64,000 nucleotides of DNA from Candidatus Nomurabacteria bacterium (GTDB lineage Bacteria > Patescibacteriota > Minisyncoccia > Phycocordibacterales > UBA9973), in contig JAPLXQ010000010.1 of the NCBI GenBank assembly GCA_026395995.1, positions 69,296-133,295 of the forward strand. The letters are read 5' to 3'. Made by a program: the position numbers and the translations under genes. Positions 2,558-24,012 of this stretch are shown here, piece by piece (position 1 is the first letter of the stretch; each line of letters begins with the position of its first letter). The notes under the pieces are model-generated. The model saw only the letters and a list, made by a program, of their open reading frames with translations, was not told the DNA's origin and searched no databases.

Positions 2558-2785
2558 ATGAAAAACCACATTCACTATCATAAAGACGGGAGCCTGTGGG
2601 GCAAGGGGCAGATGGCGGGGGATGTGATGGAAGGATATTGGGAATGGTTTTGCAAGCCTGTAGCGGGAAAGAAGATCGGCACGAGGATGCGCTCGGGGTA
2701 TTTCAAAAACGGCAAACAAGTCGGCGAGTGGACTACGTATGACAAAACAGGTAAAGTTGTGAAAGTTACGAAAATGAAATCATAA
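2558..2785 (+). CDS. MORN-repeat-variant (YwqK-like) small protein; GC about 50% against a 30% background
   Basis: Repeated G..G.W..Y..G motifs (HKDGSLWGKG, YFKNGKQVGEWTTYDKTGK) and strong local GC elevation. Confidence 0.45.
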   Translation: MKNHIHYHKDGSLWGKGQMAGDVMEGYWEWFCKPVAGKKIGTRMRSGYFKNGKQVGEWTTYDKTGKVVKVTKMKS

Positions 2786-2790
2786 ATAAA

Positions 2791-3057
2791 ATGTCCAACA
2801 AATACGAACAAAAGGCGGAGGTGGAGATTGATCTGCATGGGCACACGATGCTCGAGGCGGGGGAGGTTTTGGATGCTTTGTTTCGAGAGATGAGATACAA
2901 ACATGTCCGCATCATCACTGGTAAAGGCAAGAATAGTGAGAATGGTCCCGTCTTGCCGAACTTTGTGCGAAACTATTTGAATTCCCGCGGGGTACATTAC
3001 AATCAATCCAAACTCCAATCCGGTGGCGAAGGCGCCCTCGAAGTTTTCCTACAATAA
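2791..3057 (+). CDS. Smr-domain protein
   Basis: IDLHGHT and ITGKGKNS motifs typical of the Smr/MutS2 C-terminal domain. Also GC-rich. Confidence 0.55.
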   Translation: MSNKYEQKAEVEIDLHGHTMLEAGEVLDALFREMRYKHVRIITGKGKNSENGPVLPNFVRNYLNSRGVHYNQSKLQSGGEGALEVFLQ

Positions 3058-3191
3058 CGTTTCAAACAATCTAAAATCTCTAATTTCAACCTTTTTATCT
3101 ATTTACCCATTCGTACGAATAGGTAAATGAATACAGTGGTGGTATAATATAGATATTAAAGTATTGTATTAAAAATTTAGTAAAATAAATT

Positions 3192-3458
3192 ATGAAAGAA
3201 AAAGAATACGAGAAAATTTTGAAAGCTTTGGCAAATCATCGTCGACTCAAGATCGTGATTTATCTTAAAGATAAAAAAATAGCGACTGTCGGCGCTCTCG
3301 CTTCCCATATCAAACTATCATTCAAATCAACATCCAAACACCTTACTGTTTTATATTCTGCTGGAATTTTAGAAAAAGAACAAAAGAATCTCTCCATGTT
3401 ATATAGTATCGCTGAACCGTTACCAAAGCTTGCTCGACAAATACTAAATACAATTTAG
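3192..3458 (+). CDS. ArsR/SmtB-family HTH transcriptional regulator
   Basis: [13 protein letters not shown] ... [30 protein letters not shown] winged-helix pattern. A TGGTATAAT -10 lies about 40 bp upstream. Confidence 0.55.
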
Positions 3459-3460
3459 AT

Positions 3461-3724
3461 ATGTACTATTTATATATTTTAAAATGTGCGGATCAGAGTT
3501 TGTATACTGGCATCACGACGGATTTGAAACGTCGGGTGGCGGAGCATAATGGTGAGAAGGGAAATAAACTCGGAGCGAAGTACACGAGTGCTCGTCGGCC
3601 GGTGGAAATGGTTTATTCTAATCGATTTAAAAATCGTTCTAATGCGAGCAAAGAAGAAGCGAGAATTAAAAGTCTGAGTAGGGAAAAGAAACTAGTTTTA
3701 ATAAATAAAAAGAAATCTGTGTAA
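3461..3724 (+). CDS. GIY-YIG nuclease-domain protein
   Basis: [29 protein letters not shown] is the canonical GIY-YIG motif. Confidence 0.7.
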
Positions 3725-3760
3725 GGGGAGTCCTTACACAGATTGTGTTAGAATTGGTGA

Positions 3761-4288
3761 ATGGATTTTAGTTATAATTTAAAAACGAATAGGCGGACGC
3801 GCGGAGTGCGGATCAGTGTCGGCGCTGGTGGAGAGGTGGTGGTGACTAGGTCACCGAGAATATCCATCGTACAAGTGGAAAGCCTTGTCACAAAAAGGGC
3901 GGAATGGATACGAGAGAAGATTGCAGAGATGGAAAAAAGGCCAAAGAAAATACTTGCTCATTTTAGTGTGAAGGAATACAAAGAGTTCAAGGAGCTCACA
4001 AGAGCTTTGGTAGAGGAAAGAATAAAAGTTTTAAATCAGAAATATAAATTTGAAGTAATGAGTATCAGCATTAGGAATCAAAAGACGAGGTGGGGAAGTT
4101 GTAGTGGAAAAAAGAATTTAAATTTTAAGTACAAACTTTTCTTTTTGCCACCCGAACTCTCGGATTATATTATCGTGCATGAATTATGTCATTTAAAAGA
4201 GATGAATCATTCGAAAAGGTTTTGGGATCTAGTCGCTTTGCAAGTGCCGAATCATAAAGAATGTCGAAAACAAATACAATTATATTAA
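3761..4288 (+). CDS. YgjP/DUF45-family metal-dependent hydrolase (HExxH)
   Basis: IIVHELCHLKEMNHSKRFWDLV near the C-terminus. Contains an in-frame 15-bp perfect palindrome GGTGACtaGGTCACC at 3840..3854. Confidence 0.65.
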   Translation: MDFSYNLKTNRRTRGVRISVGAGGEVVVTRSPRISIVQVESLVTKRAEWIREKIAEMEKRPKKILAHFSVKEYKEFKELTRALVEERIKVLNQKYKFEVMSISIRNQKTRWGSCSGKKNLNFKYKLFFLPPELSDYIIVHELCHLKEMNHSKRFWDLVALQVPNHKECRKQIQLY

Positions 4289-7331: not shown

Positions 7332-10300
7332 ATGGAAGAAAAAAATAACACAAATAAATCAGAAGTAGCACTTCGTGAAGAAGCAGTTTTAGAATTTTGG
7401 AAAGAAAATGATATTTTCCAAAAAACTTTAAATAAAAAAGAAAATCCAAGAGGTGATTATATATTTTTCGATGGTCCGCCTACTGCGAATGGTATGCCAG
7501 GAATTCACCACATGGAAGCTCAAGCCTTCAAAGATGTCATGCCTCGTTATAAAACAATGAGAGGTTTTCATGTACCTAGAAAAGCTGGATGGGATACTCA
7601 CGGTCTTCCTGTGGAATTACAAGTAGAAAAAGCTCTCGGTTTGAAATCAAAAAAAGAAATTGAAAAATATGGTGTGGAACTTTTTAATCAAAAGTGTAAA
7701 GAAAGTGTTTGGAAATATCGAGATGAATGGATAAAATCACGTCAAAGAATGGGGTATTGGGTAGATATGGATAATGCTTATGTAACTTATAAAAATGATT
7801 ACATTGAAGCACTTTGGGGAGTAGTAGCAAAAGCCAATGATCGCGGACATTTATACAAAGACTTCAAAGTTCTTCCGTGGTGTACTCGTTGTGGAACAGC
7901 ACTTTCCAGTCACGAGCTTTCTCAACCAGGAGCATATAAAGATGTAAAGGATCTTTCAGTCTATGTGAAATTTAAAATAAAAGGTTTTGAAAATGGATAC
8001 TTTTTAGCTTGGACGACGACACCTTGGACTTTGCCTGGAAACGTGGGGCTAGCAGTCGGTAATGATTTTACTTATGTAGAAGCTAAAGTTGGTAATGATA
8101 TTTTGGTTCTTGCGAAAGAAAGATTAGAAATGATTACTGAGCCATACGAAATAATAGCAGAACATAAAGGTAGTGAAATGATTGGTATGGAATATGAACC
8201 ACTGTTTCCATATTTGAAAAATAATATAGAGAGTGATGTACGGACACAAATAGAAAATCTAAAAAACGCATTTAAAATTTATGGTGCAGATTTTGTGACG
8301 ACGACAGATGGTACAGGAATAGTACACACAGCAGTGATGTATGGAGCAGATGATTTTGACCTCGGTACAAAAGTTAACTTACCTAAATATCATACAGTAA
8401 ACGAAGAGGGAAGATTTGTTGCGGGTACTGATTTCCTCGAGGGACGATATGTAAAAGAAGCTGATGAGAATGGTAAGCCTACACTCGCGGTAGACATAAT
8501 AGACAATCTCACTGGCCGTGGACTTTTATTTAAAAAAGAAAATCACATGCACAGTTATCCGCATTGTTGGCGTTGTGATACACCGCTCATTTATTATGCG
8601 AGAACTTCTTGGTATTTCCGTATGAGTGCACTTCGTGATCAACTCCTAGCAGGAAATGAAAATATAAATTGGGAACCAAAACATATAAAAGAAGGACGTT
8701 TTGGTGAATGGCTCGACGGTATCAAGGATTGGGCTATTTCTCGTGATCGTTATTGGGGGACGCCGTTACCTATCTGGCAGAAGGCTGATGGAAGTTATAA
8801 AACTATTTCATCTCTTTTAGATTTGAAAAAATATACAAAGAAATCTGGAAATAAATATTTCATAATGCGCCACGGTGAGACAGAAGCCAATAAAAAAGGA
8901 ATTATTTGTTCATTACCTTCTGGTAAATGGCATCTAGATGAAGACGGAAAGAGGCAAGTAAATGAAACAGCTGAAAAATATAAAGATCAAAAAATTGATT
9001 TGATTTTTACTTCAGATTTTACTCGTACTCAAGAAACGGCAGAAATAATGGCTGATAAACTTGGATTAAATTCTGATCAAATTATCGTAGACCAAAGACT
9101 TCGTGAAATAGGTGCTTATTCTTTTGATGGAAAAAGTTGGAATGAATATCACGAGTATCATACAAAAACAGTTGAGAATTTCAACAAGCGTGTAAATGAA
9201 GATGAATCATATGAAGATGTAAAAATTCGTGTCACTTCTTTCCTTTATGAAATAGAAGAAAAATATAAAGATAAAAATATTTTATTTGTGACACATGGTG
9301 GACCAGCATGGTTGCTATTTGCTGGGGCTGAAGGTAAAGACCCAAAAGAAACATTAGACATGGTAATAGATAAGAAAGACTATCATTATTTCCAAAATGC
9401 AGAAATAAAAGAATTAAATTTTACTCCATTGCCACACAATGAAAAATTCGAATTAGATTTTCATAAACCATTTATTGATAATGTTGTATTAGAAAATAAC
9501 GGAGAAACACTTACTCGTACTTCAGAAGTGATGGACGTATGGTTCGACTCTGGGTCTATGCCTTATGCACAGGGTCATATACTTGGAGAAGAAATGAATT
9601 TCTCTCCCGCTAAAGCTGATTTTATTTCTGAAGGACTCGATCAGACTCGTGGTTGGTTTTATACTTTGCACGCTGTTTCAAATTTACTTTCAGACAAACC
9701 AAGTAATGCATATAACAATGTAATTTGTCTCGGGCTTATTCTGGATGCGAATGGACTCAAAATGTCCAAGTCTCGTGGTAATGCTGTAGACCCTTGGGCT
9801 ATGTTTGAAAAATATGGAGCAGACACTATTCGTCTCTGGATGTATTCTGTGAATCAGCCAGGGGAGTCAAAGAATTTTGACGAACGAACTGTGATGGAAC
9901 TTCACAGACAAGTTTTCGGACTTTTGTATAACATAGTTTCTTTTTATGAACTTTACCGAGACCATGACTTAGAAAGGTCTTTCCTTGAGGAGGAACATAG
10001 TGACGGGAAGGGTAAGTCCTTGCTAAGTCAGAACGTACTCGATATTTGGATTCTCGCTAGACTAAACGAATTAACAAAAAATGTTACAGAAAATTTGGAT
10101 GGCTACAAAACACTTGAACCAGTGCGCGCTATTCGTGATTTCATCGATGATTTATCTACATGGTATCTCCGTCGTTCACGTGAGAGAATTAAAGAAGGTG
10201 ATAAAAATGCAAAAGTTACTTTGTATTATGTTTTGAAAAACTTAACAAAACTTATGGCACCATTTGCACCATTTGCTAGTGAAGATATTTATCGAAAATT

Positions 10301-10862
10301 AAGAAATGAAAATGAGCCGGAATCTGTGCATCTTTGTGAATGGCCTAAATTCGAGGTTCTAGTTTCTAGTGATGAGGTTCTAGTGAAAATGCAGAAAACA
10401 AGAGACATTGTTTCTGTGGGATTAAAAGAGAGACAGAAATCAGGAATACCTGTGCGTCAGGTTTTGGGTAGTGTAAAGGTTCTTGTTGAAAAATTAGATA
10501 CTGAATACATTGATTTAATAAAAGAAGAATTGAACGTCAAAGAAGTAATACTAGAACCTAGCAACTCGAACCTAGAAACTAGTGTCGTACTCGACACAGT
10601 TATAACCCCTGAACTCAAAGAAGAAGGGAACTATCGCGAACTCGTTCGCGCTATTCAAGACATGCGTAAAAAAGCCGGACTTACTCCTTCAGACATAATT
10701 TCTCTTTCTATAGAAACTGATGAAATAGGAAAATCATTAATTCAAAAATTCGAAGCTGATTTCAAGAAAACTATTCTAATAAATGAAGTAAAATTTGAAA
10801 ATAACAGTGGGGAAGAGGTAAAAGTAGGCGCTTTAAATTTCAAAGTTAGTATTCTTAAATAA
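7332..10862 (+). CDS. ileS: isoleucyl-tRNA synthetase (type 2-like) carrying an inserted histidine-phosphatase domain at about 8790..9420
   Basis: HMEAQAF (HIGH-like), KMSKS, WAISRDRYWGTPLPIW and DVWFDSGSMPYAQ class-I editing aaRS motifs. The insert carries RHGETEAN, TRTQETAEI and VTHGG, the signature of the phosphoglycerate-mutase-like histidine phosphatase family. Confidence 0.85.
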   Translation: MEEKNNTNKSEVALREEAVLEFWKENDIFQKTLNKKENPRGDYIFFDGPPTANGMPGIHHMEAQAFKDVMPRYKTMRGFHVPRKAGWDTHGLPVELQVEKALGLKSKKEIEKYGVELFNQKCKESVWKYRDEWIKSRQRMGYWVDMDNAYVTYKNDYIEALWGVVAKANDRGHLYKDFKVLPWCTRCGTALSSHELSQPGAYKDVKDLSVYVKFKIKGFENGYFLAWTTTPWTLPGNVGLAVGNDFTYVEAKVGNDILVLAKERLEMITEPYEIIAEHKGSEMIGMEYEPLFPYLKNNIESDVRTQIENLKNAFKIYGADFVTTTDGTGIVHTAVMYGADDFDLGTKVNLPKYHTVNEEGRFVAGTDFLEGRYVKEADENGKPTLAVDIIDNLTGRGLLFKKENHMHSYPHCWRCDTPLIYYARTSWYFRMSALRDQLLAGNENINWEPKHIKEGRFGEWLDGIKDWAISRDRYWGTPLPIWQKADGSYKTISSLLDLKKYTKKSGNKYFIMRHGETEANKKGIICSLPSGKWHLDEDGKRQVNETAEKYKDQKIDLIFTSDFTRTQETAEIMADKLGLNSDQIIVDQRLREIGAYSFDGKSWNEYHEYHTKTVENFNKRVNEDESYEDVKIRVTSFLYEIEEKYKDKNILFVTHGGPAWLLFAGAEGKDPKETLDMVIDKKDYHYFQNAEIKELNFTPLPHNEKFELDFHKPFIDNVVLENNGETLTRTSEVMDVWFDSGSMPYAQGHILGEEMNFSPAKADFISEGLDQTRGWFYTLHAVSNLLSDKPSNAYNNVICLGLILDANGLKMSKSRGNAVDPWAMFEKYGADTIRLWMYSVNQPGESKNFDERTVMELHRQVFGLLYNIVSFYELYRDHDLERSFLEEEHSDGKGKSLLSQNVLDIWILARLNELTKNVTENLDGYKTLEPVRAIRDFIDDLSTWYLRRSRERIKEGDKNAKVTLYYVLKNLTKLMAPFAPFASEDIYRKLRNENEPESVHLCEWPKFEVLVSSDEVLVKMQKTRDIVSVGLKERQKSGIPVRQVLGSVKVLVEKLDTEYIDLIKEELNVKEVILEPSNSNLETSVVLDTVITPELKEEGNYRELVRAIQDMRKKAGLTPSDIISLSIETDEIGKSLIQKFEADFKKTILINEVKFENNSGEEVKVGALNFKVSILK

Positions 10863-11006
10863 TTGACAATTAATTTAAAAGTAATATCATATAAGTGTAT
10901 GAATATAAATTTTGTATTAAAAACAAAGAAGTCAAAGAAACTCTCAATCGAGGGCTCTTTTGCTTCATAATTTAGATACAACTTTCTCAAGTCAGTCTAT
11001 AAGCAA

Positions 11007-11035
11007 AAAGTCCCCCTCGATGGGGGCTTTTGTTT
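11007..11035 (+). terminator. Rho-independent terminator after ileS
   Basis: AGTCCCCCtcgatGGGGGCT followed by TTTTGTTT. Confidence 0.6.
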
Positions 11036-11465
11036 CGTAGTCTGACTCTTGTGTAGAAATTTTCCACCTAAAAGCCAGATTACCAAACAGTGTGCTTTGG
11101 TAAGGACTGGGATTAGTTATTTAACAATAAAATCAAAATAGGATGAAAAAAATCAACACATTTTTTCGGTTTATTATGTCTTTCTTTAAAAAGAAACAAA
11201 ATAAAAAAGTAGCAACATCACAAGAAAAACCATCTTTTCATCCAAATGATCCATTTGGTGAGGGGTGGAGCGGGCAAATATAATTTTGCTCGCTTTTTCT
11301 GTTTAGATAAGATAAATTGACTTTTTATATAAAATACTTTATAATAATTCAAATTCTAAGGTTCTTCGAAAATGTTATTTTTGTTGTATTCGTTTGAGTT
11401 ACTTTGTATTCCTATATGGAATTTAAGGTAATTCAAATTAATATTAACAATTAAAACCTATAAAA

Positions 11466-12305
11466 ATGAAAAATAATACTATCGAAAAAACGGTTTTCTC
11501 TATCAATGAACTTTTAGAGAGAAAAAAAGAAAATGAAGATTTATATATTCAAGATGAATTAAGATCTTTAATTAGTGACATATTTAAAAGCCCGAAAGAT
11601 GCTGCGGAGTTCTTTTCCAAAGAAGTTAAATCTACTCTAAAAAAAATTATCTGTATGGATAAAAGTACGGGTGCGTACAGTCTATATAAGTATTTGAAAG
11701 AAAGCGATTTTTCTTTTTCTGAAGGGCTTCTCATGTATGCAATAGACAATGAACCTTATTATAACAATAATGACAGTGCTTTCGTTTATTACTTATTAAA
11801 AGCTGTGCATAAAACAGAATTAGAAAAAAGTGTAACACTTTTTGTAAATCAAACTCTTCTCTTAGAAGGACATTTTTGGGATTATAAAGAGATATTTATA
11901 AATTCATACGAGTTGCACAGAAAAAATCTAATTCCTCAAATTCCTCAAAATATAGAAAGAGAAATAATTCATTCTGTAAGTACAGGTCAGCATCATCACC
12001 GCAAAATGAAAGCAATAGCTACTTCTGTTTTCTTGGGTATACAGGGAGCAACGCCTCATATTTTAAACACTTTCCTCTCAAAAGTAAGAGAGGTGATTAA
12101 AATGAAAGAGCAAGGAGAAATTAAAGTTAACTACAACATAAATAATTCAGTTCAAAATTTGGGATTTGTTCTGTATTGTTTAACTAATGAAGAAAAATAT
12201 AAGGAGTTAAGCATTTGCCCAACTGACGGACTATTTGACGGGGACGATGTAAGAATACCAATCTTTAACACTATATATGAAACTATTAAAAAATATAATT
12301 ATTAA
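11466..12305 (+). CDS. hypothetical protein
   Basis: 279-aa ORF. No family recognised. Confidence 0.4.
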   Translation: MKNNTIEKTVFSINELLERKKENEDLYIQDELRSLISDIFKSPKDAAEFFSKEVKSTLKKIICMDKSTGAYSLYKYLKESDFSFSEGLLMYAIDNEPYYNNNDSAFVYYLLKAVHKTELEKSVTLFVNQTLLLEGHFWDYKEIFINSYELHRKNLIPQIPQNIEREIIHSVSTGQHHHRKMKAIATSVFLGIQGATPHILNTFLSKVREVIKMKEQGEIKVNYNINNSVQNLGFVLYCLTNEEKYKELSICPTDGLFDGDDVRIPIFNTIYETIKKYNY

Positions 12306-12321
12306 TATAGTTATATTGAGG

Positions 12322-12352
12322 ACGGATACGAGTAATCGTATCCGTTTTTTTT
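12322..12352. terminator. bidirectional Rho-independent terminator between the converging 11466 gene and recG
   Basis: ACGGATACGagtaatCGTATCCGT flanked by T and A runs. Confidence 0.6.
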
Positions 12353-14570
12353 ATTCAAAATGCAATTCTAAATGCTTTTTGGAAAGCATAGTTTTTAGTA
12401 GAGGGTGGTGTATGAGGTCTGGGTCGGTGGCGATAATGTTTGTCGCTTCGAGGCGGGCGGCTTCAACCATTTTTATATTTTTTATGGCTTCCATTCCGAG
12501 GTCAGTGATGCCCCATTGTTTCGCGCCGCCTAGTTCACCTGCACCGCGAAGTGTGAGGTCGAGTTCGGAAAGTTCAAAACCATTTTTAGCAGTTTTGAGA
12601 GCATTCAATCTGTGCATAGTTTTTTCAGATTTTGCTTCTGCGAAAACATAGCAAAAAGCTTGGTGATTACTACGGATCACGCGTCCACGGAGCTGGTGTA
12701 GTTGTGCGAGCCCAAATCTCTCTGCACCTTCGATGATTATTATCGTCGCATTCGGAACATTCACGCCCACTTCGATTACAGATGTTGCAACGAGAATATC
12801 AATAGCACCCAAAGTAAAACGCTCCATCACTTCTTCTTTTTTTTCTTTACTCATCTTGCTATGAAGTACTCCGATTTCACAATCTGTAAATATTTCTTTT
12901 TTAAGTCTTTTTGCTTCAGCTACTGCAGACTTCATTGTGAGAGCTAGTTCCTTTTCCGGATCTGGTTCGTCGATACGAGGGCAGATGACATAGAGCTGTC
13001 TACCTTTGGCCATTTCTTCTTTTATTTTTTTATAAGTATCTTCTCTTTTGTCTGGAGTAATTATTTCTGTAATCACTGGTTTTCTACCTGCTGGCATTTC
13101 GTTGAGCAAACTTAAATCAAGGTCACCATAAATAGTGAGCGCAAGAGTGCGGGGAATCGGTGTCGCTGTCATTGAAAGTAGATGAGGGGCGAAGCCGTCT
13201 TTGCGAACAAGATTTCTTCTTTGGTTTGTACCGAAACGATGTTGTTCATCGATTATTGTGAGTGCGAGGTTTTTAAATTTCACCGATTTTGAAATGAGTG
13301 CGTGGGTGCCGATAAGTATTGGAATTTCACCATTAGCAGTCCATTTCAAAAGTTGAGCTCTGGAAATATTTGTCCAGCCGTCAGGACTAACCTTTGAAGG
13401 AAACTTCCGACAGGTCTTGCCTGTCAGCAAGGCGACGTTGATCGGTAAATGTTTAAAATATTTTATAAACGATTCAAAATGTTGAGTTGCTAAAATTTCC
13501 GTCGGTGCCATATATGCGACTTGGAGATTTCCGAATGTTTGAGGCTTGCCCTGAGCGGAGTCGAAGGGTCTTTGAGTAACTGTCGCATAAGTCACAGTCG
13601 CTGCGACGGCAGTTTTACCAGAGCCTACGTCGCCTTCGAGAAGGCGAGACATTGGGTGGTCCGCTTTAATATCAGTGAGAATTGTATTAATAGCATCGAC
13701 TTGTCCTTGAGTCGCTTGAAAAGGAAAACGTTCCAAGAATTCTTGCACCTTAGCTTCATCTGGATTAACGCAAAATGATTTATTATTTTTATATTCTCTG
13801 CGGTCTTGTTGTCTTTGTAATTGGATGAAAAAAACTTCTTCAAAAGCAAAACGCTTTCTAGCTGAAAGGGAATCGTGTTCATTTTGCGGTGTATGAATCC
13901 AAATGAGTGCAGTCTTCAAACTCGGTAAATGATATTTATCTAAAATGTCTTTTGGTATGTAATCGAAAAAACTATCCAATACACCACTGTTAAATATTTT
14001 TTGTATTGTATGATAAATCCACTTTGAAGTAATACCTCTAGTTTCTCTGTATACAGGATATGAAAGTCCTACTCCCTCTCCTTTATAAGGAGAGGGTCGG
14101 GGTGAGGTGGATTTTTCAGGGGGTGAATTCTTAAATAAACTCTCATGTTTATCTATAGGAAGGCTTCCAATTTTTTCAAATTCTGGATTAGTAAGATATA
14201 AACCGCTTTTACTTTCGGTAACTTTCCCTGTGAGTTTGATGTTTTCTCCTTCATGAATCATTTTTGCAAGGTAAGCTTGGTGAAACCAAATTATTTTTAT
14301 TCTTCCTGAGAGGTCTTCGATGTAAGCTTCGCCCATAGGAATCTTTGAACGGAAACCTTTTTTTGTTTTTAAATTTGTTACTTTTCCATACACTGTGGCT
14401 GTTTCACCAGCTACTAACTCATCAATTTGTTTTATTTGAGAAATATCTGAGTAACGAACAGGGAAGTAGAATAGTAGGTCGGCAACAGAAAAAAGCCCGA
14501 GCTTGTGAAGGGCTTTTTTCTGATTGATGTCGAGGCGTGAAATGTCCTCAAGTTTGTCACCTATATTCAT
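12351..14570 (-). CDS. recG: ATP-dependent DNA helicase RecG, with an in-frame GC-rich palindromic insert near its N-terminus
   Basis: DVGSGKTAVAA Walker A and DEQHRFG DEAH box, plus the N-terminal wedge-domain region. 739 aa. Confidence 0.8.
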   Translation of the reverse strand: MNIGDKLEDISRLDINQKKALHKLGLFSVADLLFYFPVRYSDISQIKQIDELVAGETATVYGKVTNLKTKKGFRSKIPMGEAYIEDLSGRIKIIWFHQAYLAKMIHEGENIKLTGKVTESKSGLYLTNPEFEKIGSLPIDKHESLFKNSPPEKSTSPRPSPYKGEGVGLSYPVYRETRGITSKWIYHTIQKIFNSGVLDSFFDYIPKDILDKYHLPSLKTALIWIHTPQNEHDSLSARKRFAFEEVFFIQLQRQQDRREYKNNKSFCVNPDEAKVQEFLERFPFQATQGQVDAINTILTDIKADHPMSRLLEGDVGSGKTAVAATVTYATVTQRPFDSAQGKPQTFGNLQVAYMAPTEILATQHFESFIKYFKHLPINVALLTGKTCRKFPSKVSPDGWTNISRAQLLKWTANGEIPILIGTHALISKSVKFKNLALTIIDEQHRFGTNQRRNLVRKDGFAPHLLSMTATPIPRTLALTIYGDLDLSLLNEMPAGRKPVITEIITPDKREDTYKKIKEEMAKGRQLYVICPRIDEPDPEKELALTMKSAVAEAKRLKKEIFTDCEIGVLHSKMSKEKKEEVMERFTLGAIDILVATSVIEVGVNVPNATIIIIEGAERFGLAQLHQLRGRVIRSNHQAFCYVFAEAKSEKTMHRLNALKTAKNGFELSELDLTLRGAGELGGAKQWGITDLGMEAIKNIKMVEAARLEATNIIATDPDLIHHPLLKTMLSKKHLELHFE
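14071..14125. repeat. GC-rich palindromic element inside recG (CCCTCTCCtttataaGGAGAGGG followed by TCGGGGTGAGGTGG)
   Basis: Perfect 8+8 palindrome plus conserved tail. Encodes SPRPSPYKGEGVG in frame. Related copies at 39371..39418 and 33567..33600. Confidence 0.6.
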
Positions 14571-16790: not shown

Positions 16791-18218
16791 ATGAATGGAA
16801 AATTAATTATCGCAAGGCATGAAGAATCAGAATGGAATAAACTCGGCAAATGGACTGGTTCTGTGAATATTGGTTTAACTGGTGAAGGCTTTAATCAGTC
16901 CAGAAAAATGGGTGAACTCATTCGTGGTATTCCTATGGATCAAGCTTTTGCTTCAGCGCAAATCAGATCACTTGAAACACTTCTTTGTATGGAGGACGAC
17001 ATTTGTATTGATTTACCGATTACTCGATCCGATGCTTTAAATGAAAGAGATTATGGTGATTATACTGGAAAAAATAAATGGGAAATGAAAGATATTCTAG
17101 GCGAAGAAGAGTTTGATAAGCTTCGTCGTGATTGGGATTATTCTGTGCCAAATGGTGAGACTTTGAAAATGGTTTATGAAAGAATTGTGCCATACTACCT
17201 AAACACTATTTTGCCAATCTTAAAAGAAGGGAAGACCGTGCTTCTCGTCGCTCACGGAAATTCTTTGCGAGCCTTGATGAAATATTTAGAAAATATTTCT
17301 GATGAAAACATCTCTCATTTAGAAATGCTTTTTGATACTGTAGTAATTTATGAAATAAATGAAGAAGGAAAAATGGTTAGTAAGGAAGAGAGACATTTGC
17401 CAGCCATAAAAAATGATACAAAAAAGGTTGCACAAATTGTCGCAACGATTGGAATAAATTCTGGAAATAGAGAAACTCTTTTAGAATTGTTTAAAAATGG
17501 TATGAATATTGCTCGTTTGAATTTTTCTTGGTCTAGCCTAGATTGGCATGCAGAAAAAATAGCTTTAATTAAAGCTTCAGCCAAAGAGGCTGGAAAAAAT
17601 ATTTTGATTATTCAGGATTTACCAGGACCTAGAATTCAAGAAGAACATGGGCATACATATGACAAGACTACGACTTTCGATATGACAGAGCAAGATAAAA
17701 ATTTTGTGAAATTTGGTGTCGAGCAAGAGGTAGACTACACAGCACTTTCATTTGTCGGTAGTAAAAAAGAAATATTAGAATGTCGTGAACTTATAAAAAG
17801 TCTTGGTGGTACACAAAAAATAATTGCGAAAGTAGAGAGAAAAATCGCCGTCGATAACCTCGAAGAAATTATTTCTTCGGCTGATGCAGTGATGGTAGCC
17901 AGGGGAGATCTGGGCGATGAATTTCCACTTGAACAAGTTCCATTTATACAAGATAAAATTATTAAAGCTTGTAATAAGGCTGGTAAGCCCGTAATCACTG
18001 CTACACAAATGATGCTGTCGATGACAAATAGTCCGACGCCGACACGTGCTGAAGTAACAGATGTTTACTCTGCAATCTCACAAGGTAGCGATGCAGTAAT
18101 GCTTTCAGAAGAAACAGCCACAGGTAAATATCCAGTCGAAGCTGTGACTATGATGGAGAAAATTATTCTAGAAGCCGAAAGCCATATGACTAGTGATAAA
18201 AAATTAAATCTTTTGTAA
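16791..18218 (+). CDS. fusion of 2,3-BPG-dependent phosphoglycerate mutase (N-terminal) with a minimal pyruvate kinase A-domain (C-terminal)
   Basis: N-terminus: [15 protein letters not shown] and [13 protein letters not shown] (dPGM). C-terminus: [10 protein letters not shown] ... [10 protein letters not shown] ... IIAKVE ... [12 protein letters not shown] ... [20 protein letters not shown] ... [32 protein letters not shown] (pyruvate kinase), but with no B-domain lid and no C-terminal regulatory domain. Confidence 0.75.
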
Positions 18219-18575: not shown

Positions 18576-18839
18576 ATGCTTAATGCTATTTTCTCTAAAA
18601 ACTTTAAAAAATCTTTCAAAAAGAAAGATAAAATTATTCAAGAAAAAGTAAAAATACGCATTAGACTCTTTAGAGAAGATCCAAATAATTTAATTTTAAA
18701 TAATCATAAACTTTCAGGTGAGTATGAGGGTTGTAGTAGTATAAATATAACTGGTGATTATAGAGTAGTTTTTGAATTTCTTGATAAAAATACTGTGAAC
18801 TTAGTAGATATCGGAACTCATTCAGAATTGTATGAGTAA
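18576..18839 (+). CDS. yafQ: type II toxin, YafQ/RelE family
   Basis: NHKLSGEYEGCSSINITGDYRVVFEF ... VDIGTHSELY matches the YafQ/RelE mRNA-interferase core. Confidence 0.6.
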   Translation: MLNAIFSKNFKKSFKKKDKIIQEKVKIRIRLFREDPNNLILNNHKLSGEYEGCSSINITGDYRVVFEFLDKNTVNLVDIGTHSELYE

Positions 18840-18868
18840 TGATAAAAATTAAATCTTTTGTAAAAATT

Positions 18869-20122
18869 ATGACAAAAATAAAAAAAGTTACGGGGAGGGA
18901 AATAATAGATTCACGGGGGAATCCGACTGTCGAAGTCGAGTGTGAACTTGAGAGTGGGGCAGTGGCTGTGGCGGGTGTGCCGTCTGGGGCGAGTACAGGA
19001 ATACATGAAGCTTTGGAATTGCGAGATGCAGATAAGGCTAGGTACAACGGCCTCGGAGTTTTGAATGCAGTAAATAATGTAAACACAATAATCAATGAAA
19101 ATATTTCTGGAAAAGAATTTGATCAGAAATCTTTAGATGAGGCATTGATAAATTTAGATGGAACAAAAAATAAATCCAAACTCGGAGCGAATGCAATACT
19201 CGGTGTGTCGCTCGCTTTTGCTCGTGCAGTCGCAAATGAAAAGAAAATAAATTTATATGAATATTTAGGGAGCTTAGTAGGGAATACAGAATATGCTTTA
19301 CCCGAGCCGATGTTTAATGTTATCAATGGTGGTAAACATGCCGACAGTGGACTCGACATTCAAGAATTTATGATTATCCCTGTCGGTATAAAAACTTTTA
19401 AAGAAAAAGTCCGTGTAGTTTCAGAAGTGATTTCAGCTTTGAAAAAAGTTTTAGTGGAAAAAGGATTTGGTGTCGGAGTAGGGGATGAAGGTGGCTTTGC
19501 ACCAAAACTCGCTTCCAATGAAGAAGCTTTTGATATTTTAATTATGGCGATACAAAATGCTGGTTATACTACAGAGCAAATAAAGATCGGTATTGATGCT
19601 GCAGCATCTAGCTTCTTCTTCGAGGGAATGTATAAATTAAAAATAGCAGGGGAGGAGAAAAGTTTTAATACCGATGAAATGATAGCTTGGTATGAAAAGC
19701 TCGTATCTACATACCCGATAATTTCTATCGAAGATGGACTCGACGAAGAAGACTGGGCGGGATTTGTATCATTAAATAAAAAACTCGGAGACAAGATAAA
19801 AATAATAGGGGATGACCTTCTTGTGACGAATATAGAAAAAATCCAAAAAGCTATTTCAGAAAATGCTGTGAATTCTGTTTTGATAAAATTGAATCAAATC
19901 GGAACTTTGTCTGAGACAATCGACGCAATACAAATGACTAAAAAACAAAATTGGAACGCTATCGTTTCGCACCGTTCAGGGGAGACAAATGATACATTTA
20001 TCGCCGACCTTGCCGTAGGACTATCATGTGGTTACATAAAATCTGGCTCACTAACCCGCGAAGAAAGAGTCTGTAAATATAATCGTTTGATGGAGATAGA
20101 AGAGAATTTACTATCTAAATAA
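18869..20122 (+). CDS. eno: enolase
   Basis: MTKIKKVTGREIIDSRGNPTVEVE N-terminus and SHRSGETNDTFIADLAVG active-site motif. Confidence 0.9.
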   Translation: MTKIKKVTGREIIDSRGNPTVEVECELESGAVAVAGVPSGASTGIHEALELRDADKARYNGLGVLNAVNNVNTIINENISGKEFDQKSLDEALINLDGTKNKSKLGANAILGVSLAFARAVANEKKINLYEYLGSLVGNTEYALPEPMFNVINGGKHADSGLDIQEFMIIPVGIKTFKEKVRVVSEVISALKKVLVEKGFGVGVGDEGGFAPKLASNEEAFDILIMAIQNAGYTTEQIKIGIDAAASSFFFEGMYKLKIAGEEKSFNTDEMIAWYEKLVSTYPIISIEDGLDEEDWAGFVSLNKKLGDKIKIIGDDLLVTNIEKIQKAISENAVNSVLIKLNQIGTLSETIDAIQMTKKQNWNAIVSHRSGETNDTFIADLAVGLSCGYIKSGSLTREERVCKYNRLMEIEENLLSK

Positions 20123-20128
20123 AAATTG

Positions 20129-20215
20129 CGGAGGATGTGAGATTCGAACTCACGGACCCTTTTACAGGTCGGCGGTTTAGTAAACCGCTAGTTTAAACCA
20201 CTCACTCAATCCTCC
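20129..20215 (-). tRNA. type II (long variable arm) Ser-like tRNA with anticodon loop UUACUAA (anticodon ACU, i.e. A34)
   Basis: Acceptor GGAGGAT/ATCCTCC, D-loop with GG, anticodon stem GCGGU/ACCGC, long variable arm, T-arm GTGAG-TTCGAAT-CTCAC, discriminator G. Same architecture as the tRNA-Ser(GCU) copies but G34 to A. Confidence 0.55.
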
Positions 20216-20265: not shown

Positions 20266-21303
20266 ATGGTAGAGACGTTAATATTAAATAGGATAAAATT
20301 TAATAAAAAAGGAATTCAAAAAAAGCTTATTTTGCAAGCTAAAAAGTCTTTAAATTTAACATGGTCTGAATTTGCTAAAGAATTAGGTGTAAGTACTAGA
20401 ACACTTACAAATTGGAGTTGTGAAAAGTTAAATATGTCTTTTGTCTCTGCTGAAAGAATTTCAAAATTAACAGATCTTAAAATTCCTAAAGGCTATTTAG
20501 TTATAAAATGGGATGATCATTTAAGAAAGATTAGTGCATCTGGTGGAAAGAGTAGTTTCAAAAAACATGGAAGAGTTGGTGGTGATGAAATATATAGAAA
20601 AAATAAATGGAAAGAATGGTGGACTAAAAATGGAAAGTATCAAAAAGCTCCTAGTGGTTATAATTCATTGTTAAATATAAAAAAACCAAAACATAATAAA
20701 TTGCTTGCTGAATATGTCGGTATTATGCTAGGTGATGGTGGAATAGCAAAATATTCTACGACAATTACTCTTTCAAATGAAGAAATAAATTATGTTAATT
20801 ATATATCAAGTTTGATAAATAAATTATTCGGTTTGACCCCAAAAGTTTATAAAAAGAAAAACGCTAATGCTGTCGATATAGTAGTTCAAAGAAAAGCTTT
20901 GGTAGATTTTTGCCAAAGTATTGGACTTGTTCAGGGAAATAAAGTTAAACATCAAGTAGATATTCCAAGCTGGGTCAAAGAGAATAAAAGTTTTTCGATA
21001 GAATGTGTTAGGGGATTAATAGATACTGATGGGTGCTTTTACACTAATTCGTATTATGTGAATGGTAAAAAATATTTTTATTTTAAAATTGCTTTTAAAA
21101 ACAGTTCTTTGCCGTTAATTAAATCAGTGGCAGAGATTTTAGCTAGTTTAGGAGTAAAAGTGAGAATAAGTAGAAATTTAAAAGACGTGCGAATTGAAGA
21201 AAAAGAATCAGTTTTAAAATATATAAAGGAAATAGGGACATATAATGATAAACATTTACAAAAAATAATAAAATGGAAAAATAGCAAAAATATGTTAGAG
21301 TAG
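20266..21303 (+). CDS. free-standing LAGLIDADG-family homing-endonuclease-like protein with an N-terminal HTH domain
   Basis: Two LAGLIDADG-type motifs (VGIMLGDGG and RGLIDTDGCF) and an N-terminal HTH (SEFAKELGVSTRTLTNW). Sits between two tRNA genes. Confidence 0.6.
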   Translation: MVETLILNRIKFNKKGIQKKLILQAKKSLNLTWSEFAKELGVSTRTLTNWSCEKLNMSFVSAERISKLTDLKIPKGYLVIKWDDHLRKISASGGKSSFKKHGRVGGDEIYRKNKWKEWWTKNGKYQKAPSGYNSLLNIKKPKHNKLLAEYVGIMLGDGGIAKYSTTITLSNEEINYVNYISSLINKLFGLTPKVYKKKNANAVDIVVQRKALVDFCQSIGLVQGNKVKHQVDIPSWVKENKSFSIECVRGLIDTDGCFYTNSYYVNGKKYFYFKIAFKNSSLPLIKSVAEILASLGVKVRISRNLKDVRIEEKESVLKYIKEIGTYNDKHLQKIIKWKNSKNMLE

Positions 21304-21313
21304 TTGGGTCAAA

Positions 21314-21402
21314 GGAACCGTGTCTGAGCGGTCTAAGGTACCTCTTTGCTAAAGAGGCAGGGGCTTTAAAACCCCTCGCGAGTTCGAATCTCGCCGGTTC
21401 CG
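21314..21402 (+). tRNA. tRNA-Ser(GCU), copy 1
   Basis: Acceptor GGAACCG/CGGTTCC, anticodon arm CCTCT-TTGCTAA-AGAGG, long variable arm, T-loop TTCGAAT, discriminator G. Confidence 0.75.
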
Positions 21403-21423
21403 CAACAAATCTAAACCCAAATC

Positions 21424-21447: not shown

Positions 21448-21629
21448 AATTTGGATTTTTTACGGTATCTGATGGACAAAGTTCGAAATTACTTCGAGCA
21501 GAACCCCAATGATTTAAAAAGCTTTAGCTTTTTATTTTGGCGAAATTCGGGCGGGCTTCCATAAATACATACTATCATATTATTCTAAGTTTGAATATCC
21601 TTGTTGTGAATATACACTTATGATATACT

Positions 21630-21851
21630 ATGGGTAAATCAATTAGAACAAAAGAATACGGAGTATTCGTCAAAAGTCTTCGCCAAGCTCGTGAAGAAAT
21701 GGGATTAACACAGGTTGAGGTCGCAAAGAAACTTAAAAGACCACAATCGTACATTTCTAAATGTGAAGCTGGCGAACAAAGGATTGATGTGGTTGAATTA
21801 AATAAGTTTGCGAAACTTTATAAAAAAAACATTGGATACTTTATAAGTTAA
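21630..21851 (+). CDS. XRE-family HTH regulator
   Basis: LTQVEVAKKLKRPQSYISKCEAGEQRIDVVELNKFAKLY matches the Cro/C1-type HTH. Confidence 0.65.
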   Translation: MGKSIRTKEYGVFVKSLRQAREEMGLTQVEVAKKLKRPQSYISKCEAGEQRIDVVELNKFAKLYKKNIGYFIS

Positions 21852-21861
21852 TTATAAAATT

Positions 21862-22512
21862 ATGGAAAACAAAGAAAAACAAAATAATTTGCCTTGGATA
21901 ATTGTTGGTGTAGTTGTAATCGTTTTTATTATTTTTTTGGTAAGTAGTTCTAACAAAGGAAACACGAATCAATCAGGTAATTCTCCAACAAATAGTATAA
22001 CTGGATTTTTTACGCCAGAAAGTGATGCTCAAATAAAATGCAAATCAGTTACTCAAAAAGCCTTCGATAATTGGTCGGGGAAATTATCTAAGCAACTTTA
22101 CGATTCCATAATGATTGGTACCGACACAGGTCAAATAATCAATACTGGCTCAACTGTTGATTACAAATATAATTACAATACTGATGTAAATCTTTGTTTT
22201 ATGGAATATGTTTTTTCATGGAAAGTTAAAAAGGTTAGTTCGGGAAATGAAGGACAGGTTGATATAAAAGTTGTGCAAACACTCTTTTCTGATACCAACG
22301 ACCCTACAACCACAGGAAATACAGCTCTCGCAACTTTAGCTACAGGAACTGGCCCAAGTGGAAGTCAACTAGTACAACTTTGTTCTGTTATGGTGCCAGG
22401 GCATTATGACGACCCAACACAAAAACCAGTAGGCGAATTACTTGCTCCTACACAATGCAAGTCGGAATCAGAGTTTAATTCATTGGTGCTCGAAAGATTT
22501 GGCATTAAGTAG
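21862..22512 (+). CDS. membrane-anchored extracytoplasmic protein (N-terminal TM helix)
   Basis: LPWIIVGVVVIVFIIFLV signal-anchor followed by a Thr/Gly-rich region. Confidence 0.4.
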   Translation: MENKEKQNNLPWIIVGVVVIVFIIFLVSSSNKGNTNQSGNSPTNSITGFFTPESDAQIKCKSVTQKAFDNWSGKLSKQLYDSIMIGTDTGQIINTGSTVDYKYNYNTDVNLCFMEYVFSWKVKKVSSGNEGQVDIKVVQTLFSDTNDPTTTGNTALATLATGTGPSGSQLVQLCSVMVPGHYDDPTQKPVGELLAPTQCKSESEFNSLVLERFGIK

Positions 22513-22520
22513 TAAATTTT

Positions 22521-22925
22521 GTGCAAAAACTTTCAAAAAAATCCTTAATATCATTAGTAGTAATAATTCTTTTGATATTTTTGGGTTTATATTTCTCGCG
22601 AGATTCTATAACCAAACAATGGAAAGAATTTCAATTGAATAAAGAATTCGTTTGCCCAGAAAATCAAACTGCTGAACAAGCTGACGCTTATCGGTATAAG
22701 CAAACTAAATTTTACGTAGATAATTACCCCGATATAACCTTTCAGAATTTTTTAAGTAGGCGTATGCAACTTTTAGTTTCTCATAAATGTTCAGTTACTC
22801 TGCAGAATCTAGCGAATGATAATAATGGTGTATTGCCAGATCAAAATTCTGTTAATGAACTTAAAAATGCACCTTACGGACCAAACAATCTAACTCTAAA
22901 AGAAATGGCGAAAAATTTAAAATAA
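22521..22925 (+). CDS. small membrane-anchored protein
   Basis: N-terminal hydrophobic helix SLISLVVIILLIFLGLYF. Confidence 0.4.
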   Translation: MQKLSKKSLISLVVIILLIFLGLYFSRDSITKQWKEFQLNKEFVCPENQTAEQADAYRYKQTKFYVDNYPDITFQNFLSRRMQLLVSHKCSVTLQNLANDNNGVLPDQNSVNELKNAPYGPNNLTLKEMAKNLK

Positions 22926-22930
22926 TTAAG

Positions 22931-23497
22931 ATGGAAAGCGCAGAACAAGATTGTCATATGTTGGAAGAATATCTAAAGGTATTTCAAGATTTGATGTTGA
23001 CCATTTTACAGCGTCGCGCTCTTTTTAGAGCTTTTGAGGAATCCTTGATTGGTAAAAATATATCTGATGAAAATCCTTTTTTAAAATTTTATGCAGGTGA
23101 TTATAGGCGTTCTCAATTTGCTGATTTAAGAAAATTTTTTGATAATAACAAACGATACCCGACTTATAAGTTTTCTTTTATTACGGAACATTGTTCCGAT
23201 AAAACTATTCTAGATAGCCATAAAGAATTATTAAAAAGTTGGCAAGATAAATTTCAGGACATCGCAAATAAAATTGATTTTCATATTGAACAAGGGTTTG
23301 TGGCTACTCCTGTCTTCAAAAAACAATTTGATGATTTCACTGACGAAGTAAATGAATATATTGATAAGGTCATTGAGGTTTTGGTAAAGGACGGTCATAA
23401 AATAAGTTATCAAATGGGAAGAAAATCAGAATCTGATTTTCTAGTGAATTGGCAAAAAGAATATTTTGATGAGTTTAAGAAGATTGTTTGCGAATAG
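22931..23497 (+). CDS. hypothetical protein
   Basis: 188-aa ORF. No family recognised. Confidence 0.35.
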   Translation: MESAEQDCHMLEEYLKVFQDLMLTILQRRALFRAFEESLIGKNISDENPFLKFYAGDYRRSQFADLRKFFDNNKRYPTYKFSFITEHCSDKTILDSHKELLKSWQDKFQDIANKIDFHIEQGFVATPVFKKQFDDFTDEVNEYIDKVIEVLVKDGHKISYQMGRKSESDFLVNWQKEYFDEFKKIVCE

Positions 23498-23885
23498 GGA
23501 GCAATCCCCGCCGTTTTATAATGTTTCTTCAAAACGGCGTGGATTTGTGCGCGAACGGGTGGGTGGGTCAAGCACATAAAGAAATTTAGGACTCGCCATC
23601 CTTTTTTTTGTTATAATTGTATGGTGAGACATTTTTTTGAATTTATAAGCCCGCCCGAATTTCGCCAAAACAAAAAGAGGAGCAAGCGGAGGATTCCTCC
23701 CCAGACCCCTCCTCCTCCGTTTGCGACATCCGAATTCAGAAAAAAGGAATCAGCCGAAGTTTTGCGGAATCCTTTCCCCAGAAAATTGTTTCCGCAAAAC
23801 TTCGTCCGCATTGTTTCAGATTTCTTTTTCTGGATTTTCTTCGAAAAAAGTTCGAATTTTGTCCAGAATATACCGCAAATGTTTT

Positions 23886-23974
23886 TGGAACCGTGTCTGA
23901 GCGGTCTAACGTACCTCTTTGCTAAAGAGGCAGGGGCTTTAAAACCCCTCGCGAGTTCGAATCTCGCCGGTTCC
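23886..23974 (+). tRNA. tRNA-Ser(GCU), copy 2 (2 mismatches to copy 1)
   Basis: 89 nt, same cloverleaf as 21314..21402. Differs only at taaggt/taacgt in the D-region. Confidence 0.75.
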
Positions 23975-24012
23975 GCTTGTAATAATTTTATACATTTAAC
24001 GGCAATAATAAT

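Follow-up and report, generated by a model that had tools for sequence, protein, structure and literature searches.

Why would a bacterium keep a serine tRNA with adenosine at the wobble position (A34), in a codon box that serine shares with arginine? Ehrlich et al. (2021) described ANN anticodons of split boxes as universally missing, naming the Ser-Arg box, and reported that phage tRNAs lack the same genes (PMC8007984). In GtRNAdb, across 4,047 bacteria, Raval et al. (2026) found ANN tRNAs of two-fold boxes to be sporadic, with no lineage retaining one, and called their rarity unexplained; Patescibacteria are not mentioned (bioRxiv 10.64898/2026.05.15.725136). Both surveys held essentially no Patescibacteria or uncultivated phages. 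The 64,000-nt stretch of a Candidatus Nomurabacteria contig analysed here (the window) carries such a gene, a class II tRNA-Ser(ACU) at 20129..20215 on the minus strand. No prior report of tRNA-Ser(ACU) in CPR bacteria (Patescibacteria) or phages was found in the open-access literature. Automatic genome annotations surely already label these genes, and the novelty lies in recognising the ACU family and its conservation, not in detecting a tRNA.

Structure and anticodon of the tRNA gene

ARAGORN called a tRNA-Ser(act) of 87-88 nt at 20128-20215 on the minus strand. With the Rfam model RF00005, the match spans 20129-20215 and model positions 1-71 of 71, scores 52.0 bits against a gathering score of 29 (E = 1.6e-10) and contains no non-canonical pair. 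The score above the gathering threshold and the full cloverleaf identify a class II tRNA, as does the covariation within its family described below. The acceptor stem has 7 bp, the D stem 3 bp, the anticodon stem 5 bp and the T stem 5 bp, and the variable arm consists of a 4-bp stem with an 8-nt loop. There is a GG in the D-loop, the discriminator is G73, and CCA is not encoded. The T-loop, UUCGAAU, is the canonical GTTCGAATC expected of a ribosomal tRNA. The folding energy was -33.8 kcal/mol (z = -3.85). Allo-tRNAs and tRNA-Sec-like tRNAs have 8/4 or 9/3 acceptor/T stems, a geometry that differs from the 7-bp and 5-bp stems found here.

The anticodon occupies 20179..20181 (minus strand; AGT on the plus strand), with A34 at 20181, and RF00005 places ACU at positions 34-36 within the 7-nt loop UUACUAA. 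An earlier note, made from the letters of the window, had described a canonical type II cloverleaf with this loop and this anticodon, and had remarked that A34 is in bacteria otherwise restricted to tRNA-Arg(ACG). Every feature that it listed is present, and A34 outside tRNA-Arg(ACG) is indeed highly unusual in bacteria. ARAGORN, which the note had proposed as a check, and RF00005 both give ACU rather than GCU or a pseudogene, and no alternative register yields GCU, CUA or another stop-codon anticodon. The note had also judged that the gene does not fit an amber suppressor, and we agree: the loop has 7 nt, U33 precedes A34, and TAG ends 9 of the 55 open reading frames in the window, with TAA ending 44 and TGA 2. 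Amber or ochre suppression through a loop shift is ruled out by loop geometry and stop-codon usage. Nor is there any sign of recoding, as ACU pairs with the serine codon AGU and all three stop codons terminate reading frames.

The window also holds two tRNA-Ser(GCU) genes, which score 45.9 and 40.8 bits with RF00005, below the ACU gene. The statement in the earlier note that the ACU gene mirrors these copies holds for architecture but not for sequence, since all stems differ. A strict sigma-70 scan found no promoter on the strand of the window tRNA-Ser(ACU), and promoter-like motifs upstream of ACU family members were modestly enriched (25% versus 11% in shuffles), without fixed spacing. An Rfam cmscan of the whole window at the gathering threshold omitted this 52-bit tRNA, a loss to the speed filter that a local run recovered; such whole-window scans can overlook good tRNAs in the AT-rich sequence of the window.

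Conservation and distribution of the ACU family

Relatives of the locus were picked through the enolase protein (94-96% identical), a choice blind to the anticodon, in NCBI, ENA and JGI assemblies. The window enolase gene (18839..20122, plus strand) ends 6 nt from the 3' end of the tRNA and served as the synteny anchor. All four related enolase loci with a tRNA at that place carry tRNA-Ser(ACU) with A34. These four copies show compensatory paired changes in the acceptor, D, anticodon and variable stems, and their anticodon loop is identical.

For the wider distribution, we used a generic pattern of a type II tRNA with the loop TTACTAA and the T-loop GTTCGAATC, which had one match in the window and none in 100 shuffles. 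Scanning one genome per GTDB species returned at least 120 matches, and as the distribution scans demanded the loop TTACTAA, these counts alone are silent on other anticodons in relatives. ARAGORN, run over the window and 126 loci, called 123 Ser(ACU) genes with 111 distinct sequences. Among the 120 GTDB matches listed, 95 are Patescibacteria by record title, comprising 39 Saccharibacteria and 56 others (Paceibacteria, Nomurabacteria, Parcubacteria, Magasanikbacteria, Adlerbacteria, Taylorbacteria, Minisyncoccia and "Patescibacteria group"); a further 13 are titled "bacterium" and 12 bear other names. In the CPR loci listed, 72 of 118 hold both ACU and GCU genes, 51 of these pairs lying within 500 nt, and most pairs are either divergent (42) or tandem, GCU then ACU (24).

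Among the 12 with other names, four contigs of 58-60% GC (L009, L022, L095 and L118), labelled Planctomycetaceae, Phycisphaerales (twice) and Chitinophaga pinensis, carry identical or 99% identical tRNA-Ser(ACU) genes whose T stem contains a U:U mismatch. Of these labels, Chitinophaga looks like a binning error. Since L009 encodes ordinary chromosomal genes (MoeA, MoaA, redoxin), tRNA-Ser(ACU) is not confined to CPR bacteria. A scan of IMG/VR viral contigs returned at least 120 loci. A Ser(ACU) gene is present in each of the 120 listed, in most cases as part of a tRNA array, and these arrays reach 23 genes. Sampled open reading frames of these viral loci match phage protein families. When the window tRNA and two viral medoids were compared by BLAST with isolated phages in GenBank, a search that is not exhaustive, the only tRNAs matched were Ser(UGA) or Ser(GCU). 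One locus binned as Candidatus Planktophila (L107, 1887-2812) packs six tRNAs (Glu, Ser-ACU, Asn, Gln, Thr, Lys) within 1 kb; its layout is like that of the viral arrays, and it is probably a phage or prophage fragment. The same collections contain tRNA-Ile(UAU), with 8 genes in CPR loci (L011, L030, L043, L046, L082, L083) and 21 in viral loci and phage arrays; a review lists the anticodon UAU as lost in prokaryotes (PMC8007984).

Sequence variation in the family speaks to whether these genes are maintained. In 38 distinct 88-nt members, 99.5% of 912 pair cells were standard pairs, and in 15 of 24 pairs both partners had changed (187 cells). In 500 column shuffles of this alignment the observed pairing and covariation were never reached, and sliding the register by 1-3 columns lowered pairing to 31-57%. 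Across all 111 distinct ACU sequences, each stem position is paired in 96-100% and G73 is invariant; CCA is encoded in 31 copies. The variable region measures 16-20 nt and contains a paired stem.

The nearest neighbour of every ACU gene was another ACU gene. Identity between an ACU gene and the GCU gene of the same locus had a median of 0.60 and a maximum of 0.69. With the 22 positions fixed by the pattern masked, identity was 0.72 between CPR ACU genes and 0.49 between ACU and GCU genes, with viral ACU genes intermediate at 0.58. Judged by these identities, the ACU genes are a family of their own, separate from GCU. The fixation of A34 was followed in a metagenome scan with a motif of the D-loop and anticodon stem that allowed R at position 34, which returned 90 A and 30 G matches. 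This motif is not family-specific, the 30 G34 matches coming from other tRNA-Ser(GCU) lineages, and matches were therefore sorted by full-length identity. Among full-length tRNAs at least 85% identical to the ACU family, 86 had A34 and none had G34, and all 25 full-length G34 tRNAs were more distant (at most 84% identity).

These patterns suggest that tRNA-Ser(ACU) is very probably a working tRNA under selection. The earlier note had offered a decaying paralogue as one reading, which we reject because relatives show compensatory changes and over 100 further genomes conserve the gene. As the window has two copies of a normal tRNA-Ser(GCU), an extra copy could drift, whether as a pseudogene or as a neutral, recent G34A duplicate; an error of sequencing or assembly would give the same appearance. 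All three are extremely improbable. A34 recurs in independent NCBI, ENA and JGI assemblies, the diversity of the loci excludes a single contaminating sequence, and the ACU gene is only ~60% identical to the adjacent GCU gene. Furthermore, the 111 distinct variants keep the cloverleaf by compensatory change, and the ACU gene outscores the GCU copies on the tRNA model. A relic of an attachment (att) site, also raised in the note, is rejected for the tRNA itself, which is full length and under selection, with 99.5% of stem cells paired in 38 variants and 15 covarying pairs, though the tRNA pair is an insertion hotspot, as described below.

Proposed decoding of AGU and the state of A34

The window uses AGU 324 times, AGC 51, AGA 223 and AGG 56. 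When the enolase was compared with 115 distant homologues, AGA and AGG fell at arginine columns and AGU and AGC at serine columns. Across 30 orthologue pairs with relatives, 37 AGA changes were seen, of which 28 led to CGN or AGG, 5 to AAA and 2 to AGU, while AGU and AGC swap with each other and with neighbouring codons, as serine codons should. By these comparisons the genetic code of the lineage is the standard one and AGA is arginine. Reassignment of AGA to serine is ruled out by the enolase columns and the codon changes between orthologues. Because AGA evolves as arginine, the ACU tRNA cannot read it to a notable extent.

We propose that the gene probably encodes an elongator tRNA-Ser isoacceptor that works in translation and belongs to an old tRNA-Ser(ACU) family of wide distribution. 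Two features of the seryl-tRNA synthetase (SerRS) identity set, a long variable arm and G73, are present in the ACU family, and the anticodon is not an identity element for bacterial SerRS. The enzyme would thus charge this tRNA through its variable arm and discriminator, and the A34 version would remain a serine tRNA. On the ribosome, it is expected to read AGU by a full Watson-Crick A34:U3 match, with the neighbouring tRNA-Ser(GCU) covering AGC, plus AGU by wobble. If A34 is left unmodified, as seems most likely, the tRNA would be AGU-specific and kept off the arginine codons AGA and AGG. Taken by itself, the reading of AGU as serine within the standard code is probable.

Experiments in E. 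coli bear on this proposal. An orthogonal tRNA with an ACU anticodon read AGU at 9.4% and AGG at 0.36%, with AGC and AGA below detection, and inosine was not detected in it in the presence of the deaminase TadA (PMC11066159). In the same study, changes at loop positions 32, 37 or 38 abolished the action of TadA on other ANN tRNAs (PMC11066159). Overexpressed Ser-tRNA(ACU) improved the growth of E. coli, unlike most ANN tRNAs of two-fold boxes (bioRxiv 10.64898/2026.05.15.725136).

The principal alternative accepts a functional tRNA but has a TadA-type deaminase convert A34 to inosine (I34), so that ICU would read AGU and AGC, and weakly AGA. Across the 120 viral Ser(ACU) loci listed, Ser(GCU) genes number just 2, as though a single tRNA served the whole box, and 11 viral arrays also hold Arg(ACG), implying hosts with TadA. 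Moreover, a genome-encoded Phe-tRNA(AAA), also from a two-fold box, is converted to I34 in E. coli (bioRxiv 10.64898/2026.05.15.725136), and the ACU loop shares U33-A34-C35 with tRNA-Arg(ACG). The rest of the loop fits less well. It reads U32 U33 A34 C35 U36 A37 A38, compared with C32 U33 A34 C35 G36 A37 A38 in the TadA substrate, so that the ACU family differs from tRNA-Arg2 by U32 in place of C32 and U36 in place of G36, and position 32 is one of those at which changes blocked TadA. The ACU tRNA in TadA-bearing E. coli likewise showed neither inosine nor AGC reading (PMC11066159). In addition, AGA is a frequent arginine codon here, and I34:A reading would place serine for arginine; the GCU gene kept beside ACU in 72 of the 118 CPR loci listed would be unneeded if ICU read AGC.

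The loci were also searched for the deaminase itself. In this small sample, neither the 64-kb window nor any of the cellular loci with ACU gave a tblastn hit to TadA. The search was able to detect the enzyme, since TadA turned up alongside Arg(ACG) in the unrelated loci L265 and L315. The only CGN-box arginine tRNAs in ACU-bearing cellular loci have the anticodons GCG (3) and CCG (1), with no Arg(ACG) seen in this small sample. Arg(GCG) occurs in the ACU-bearing loci L036 (542-614), L064 (5649-5721) and L114 (3778-3854), the usual bacterial arginine tRNA being Arg(ACG). Lineages that carry ACU may lack TadA, a suggestion that should be read with the small sample in mind.

Overall, it is somewhat likely that A34 of tRNA-Ser(ACU) is unmodified, and deamination to I34 is unlikely. 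In the viral arrays, where GCU is nearly absent, the host could supply it, or the phage tRNA could be deaminated to ICU. The earlier note had offered, as one option, a functional tRNA decoding AGY or AGA via inosine. That the tRNA is functional is well supported; the decoding via inosine is not, as AGA behaves as arginine here and the ACU tRNA in E. coli carried no inosine and did not read AGC or AGA.

We also compared codon usage in the carriers, as the note had recommended for AGU and AGC. AGU exceeds AGC in the window (324 versus 51). Carriers show no special preference for AGU: CPR loci have a U-fraction of 0.66 in the AGY box and viral loci one of 0.63, no different from other NNY boxes, with no AGU excess in either set. 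Codon usage thus gives no sign that faster AGU reading brings a selective benefit. Members of the family are found, too, in the contigs of ~58-60% GC, where AGC exceeds AGU. Its selective advantage is left unexplained by codon usage.

Other two-codon boxes suggest why the exception falls on serine. The synthetases of the other NNY boxes use position 34 as an identity element. In the viral arrays listed, the tRNAs of these boxes all have G34 (158 genes: Asn 68, Asp 32, Tyr 23, Cys 18, His 13, Phe 4), and the only other A34 tRNAs are Arg(ACG) (11), Gly(ACC) (1) and Leu(AAG) (1). Because SerRS does not read position 34 and those synthetases do, Ser AGY is probably the only two-codon NNY box in which A34 can evolve.

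Natural and engineered A34 tRNAs provide several points of comparison. Bacterial tRNA-Ser(GCU) is also class II with G73, has the same loop frame (U32-U33-N34-C35-U36-A37-A38) and codon box, and its gene usually lies no more than a few hundred bases from that of the ACU tRNA. It differs in having G34, belongs to a separate family with ~60% identity to its co-resident ACU gene, and reads both AGU and AGC, whereas ACU is expected to read AGU only. The tRNA-Thr(AGU) of Mycoplasma and other Mollicutes is a natural tRNA with an unmodified wobble A34 in AT-rich, reduced genomes (PMC11066159). Its box, however, is four-fold, so any third base is harmless, whereas in the split Ser/Arg box reading A or G at the third base would insert the wrong amino acid. 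The tRNA-Leu(AAG) of Lactobacillales, Streptococcus and Oenococcus and tRNA-Arg(ACG) are likewise encoded with ANN anticodons and retained across whole lineages. These serve four-fold boxes with TadA-dependent I34 and replace the GNN isoacceptor; Ser(ACU), in contrast, serves a two-fold box, stands beside GCU in CPR bacteria, has a loop unlike that of a TadA substrate and is probably unmodified. Two counterparts with the same anticodon are the engineered Ser-tRNA(ACU) of Raval et al. (2026) and the orthogonal ACU tRNA of Schmitt et al. (2024), which in E. coli are tolerated, even beneficial, AGU-specific and not deaminated. Those are laboratory constructs, whereas the Ser(ACU) tRNAs of Patescibacteria and phages are natural, old and widespread.

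On balance, we lean slightly towards a broader reading, in which an unmodified A34 tRNA for the split Ser/Arg box is standard and ancient in much of Patescibacteria, some Planctomycetota and many phages. If so, the rule that excludes ANN anticodons from split boxes is not universal, and the exception would be allowed by a SerRS that ignores the anticodon and by an anticodon that is intrinsically AGU-specific; loss of TadA may have helped. A conserved ACU family takes the word "universal" out of the rule of missing A34, shows which box can escape it and suggests why. It also offers natural systems in which split-box A34 decoding, its modification and its cost or gain can be measured, and some Saccharibacteria can be cultured and genetically manipulated. 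The family also matters for how CPR bacteria and phages are annotated and how their codon adaptation is modelled, and for genetic-code engineers in search of an AGU-specific adaptor.

The tRNA pair and its surroundings

The window has ~33% GC, and the neighbours of the tRNA encode RecG, a two-component pair, a 2-hydroxyacid dehydrogenase, a phosphatase/pyruvate-kinase fusion, enolase, a ComF-like protein and PilM. The window enolase is 100% identical to an enolase annotated in a Candidatus Nomurabacteria MAG, and its next relatives are from other Paceibacteria and Parcubacteria. From these gene neighbours and enolase relatives, the window is a Patescibacteria (CPR) chromosome, not a phage, and megablast of 8 kb of it against GenBank phages gave no match.

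The usual partner of the ACU gene, a tRNA-Ser(GCU) at 23887..23976 (plus strand), is contiguous with a conserved DUF948 gene downstream of it, an arrangement shared with relatives. The two tRNA genes of the window stand apart, separated by 3.7 kb of foreign-looking DNA that contains a LAGLIDADG reading frame, a second GCU copy and a 2.1-kb segment. The first of these is a 345-aa frame with HTH and LAGLIDADG_3 domains (20266..21303, plus strand), which is inserted into the spacer that separates the divergently oriented ACU and GCU genes. It is also found in the relative L002 and is absent from L001, L005 and L006. The earlier note had drawn attention to the adjacency of tRNA and LAGLIDADG gene, which is incidental, since the relatives L001, L005 and L006 carry the tRNA pair without it. 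A functional link between the two is ruled out on the same grounds. The additional GCU gene (copy 1; 21314..21403, plus strand) is a 90-nt duplicate within the inserted DNA, and the two copies differ at a single base of the D stem, tRNA position 24, which is either G or C. Relatives have one or the other there, with G in L005 and L006 and C in L001.

Between the two GCU copies lies a further insertion, the 2.1-kb segment (21528..23677), bounded by 31-nt inverted repeats (21528-21558 and 23647-23677) that are 97% complementary. It holds an HTH_3 regulator frame (21630-21851) and three frames without an informative family match. The segment could be mobile or invertible, but a search of its content revealed no recombinase. 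A sequence of ~64 nt on the 3' side of GCU copy 1 (21458-21521) recurs in L002 at 3942-4005 and 9320-9381 with ~90% identity. The two L002 copies form an inverted pair around a 5.4-kb block that encodes a DUF4411 protein, an M78 peptidase, an HSP70-like protein and an HTH protein.

In related loci the pair is compact, with the genes divergent and 62 nt apart in L001 and tandem and 10 nt apart in L005 and L006. L002 shares the junction between ACU and LAGLIDADG genes with the window (94.7% identity) and has a further insertion of ~8 kb between enolase and tRNA-Ser(ACU). At its end, a large serine recombinase gene (Resolvase, Recombinase and Zn_ribbon_recom domains; 9386-11038) overlaps the 3' end of the L002 tRNA-Ser(ACU) (11026-11113) by 13 nt, which suggests that an element of ~8 kb integrated beside the tRNA. 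The 3.7-kb split in the window and the ~8-kb insertion in L002 make the ACU/GCU pair an insertion hotspot, as tRNA genes often are.

Such a hotspot raises the question of whether the gene is kept for a role other than decoding, as an attachment site, as a decoy or resistant substitute against a nuclease of tRNA-Ser(GCU), or as a regulatory RNA. Foreign-looking DNA splits the pair in the window, the recombinase gene abuts the tRNA 3' end in L002, and phages often carry tRNAs that resist host anticodon nucleases. An attachment site, however, needs only a short 3' segment, whereas the family covaries in all five helices and has an invariant loop and G73. The canonical T-loop is that of a ribosomal tRNA, phage ACU genes sit among ordinary decoders in their arrays, and no nuclease specific for tRNA-Ser(GCU) was identified in this analysis. 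We therefore consider a non-decoding role quite improbable and prefer an elongator that reads AGU.

Three further features of the neighbourhood were observed. Beside recG, L001 carries a bAvd gene followed by a reverse transcriptase gene (RVT_1; 2683-4088), the hallmark pair of a diversity-generating retroelement, and the corresponding place in the window holds unannotated frames (11466-12651) with no Pfam hit. An IleRS-type class I aminoacyl-tRNA synthetase of 1176 aa (7332-10862, plus strand) has a His_Phos_1 domain inserted at residues 510-680 (E = 1.2e-35), between the catalytic-core segments and the anticodon-binding domain, and its L001 orthologue (1-1389) has the same architecture. Directly upstream of enolase, a 475-aa fusion (16791-18218, plus strand) joins an N-terminal, phosphoglycerate-mutase-like His_Phos_1 domain to the C-terminal half only of a pyruvate-kinase barrel, and this fusion is conserved in L001, L003 and L005.
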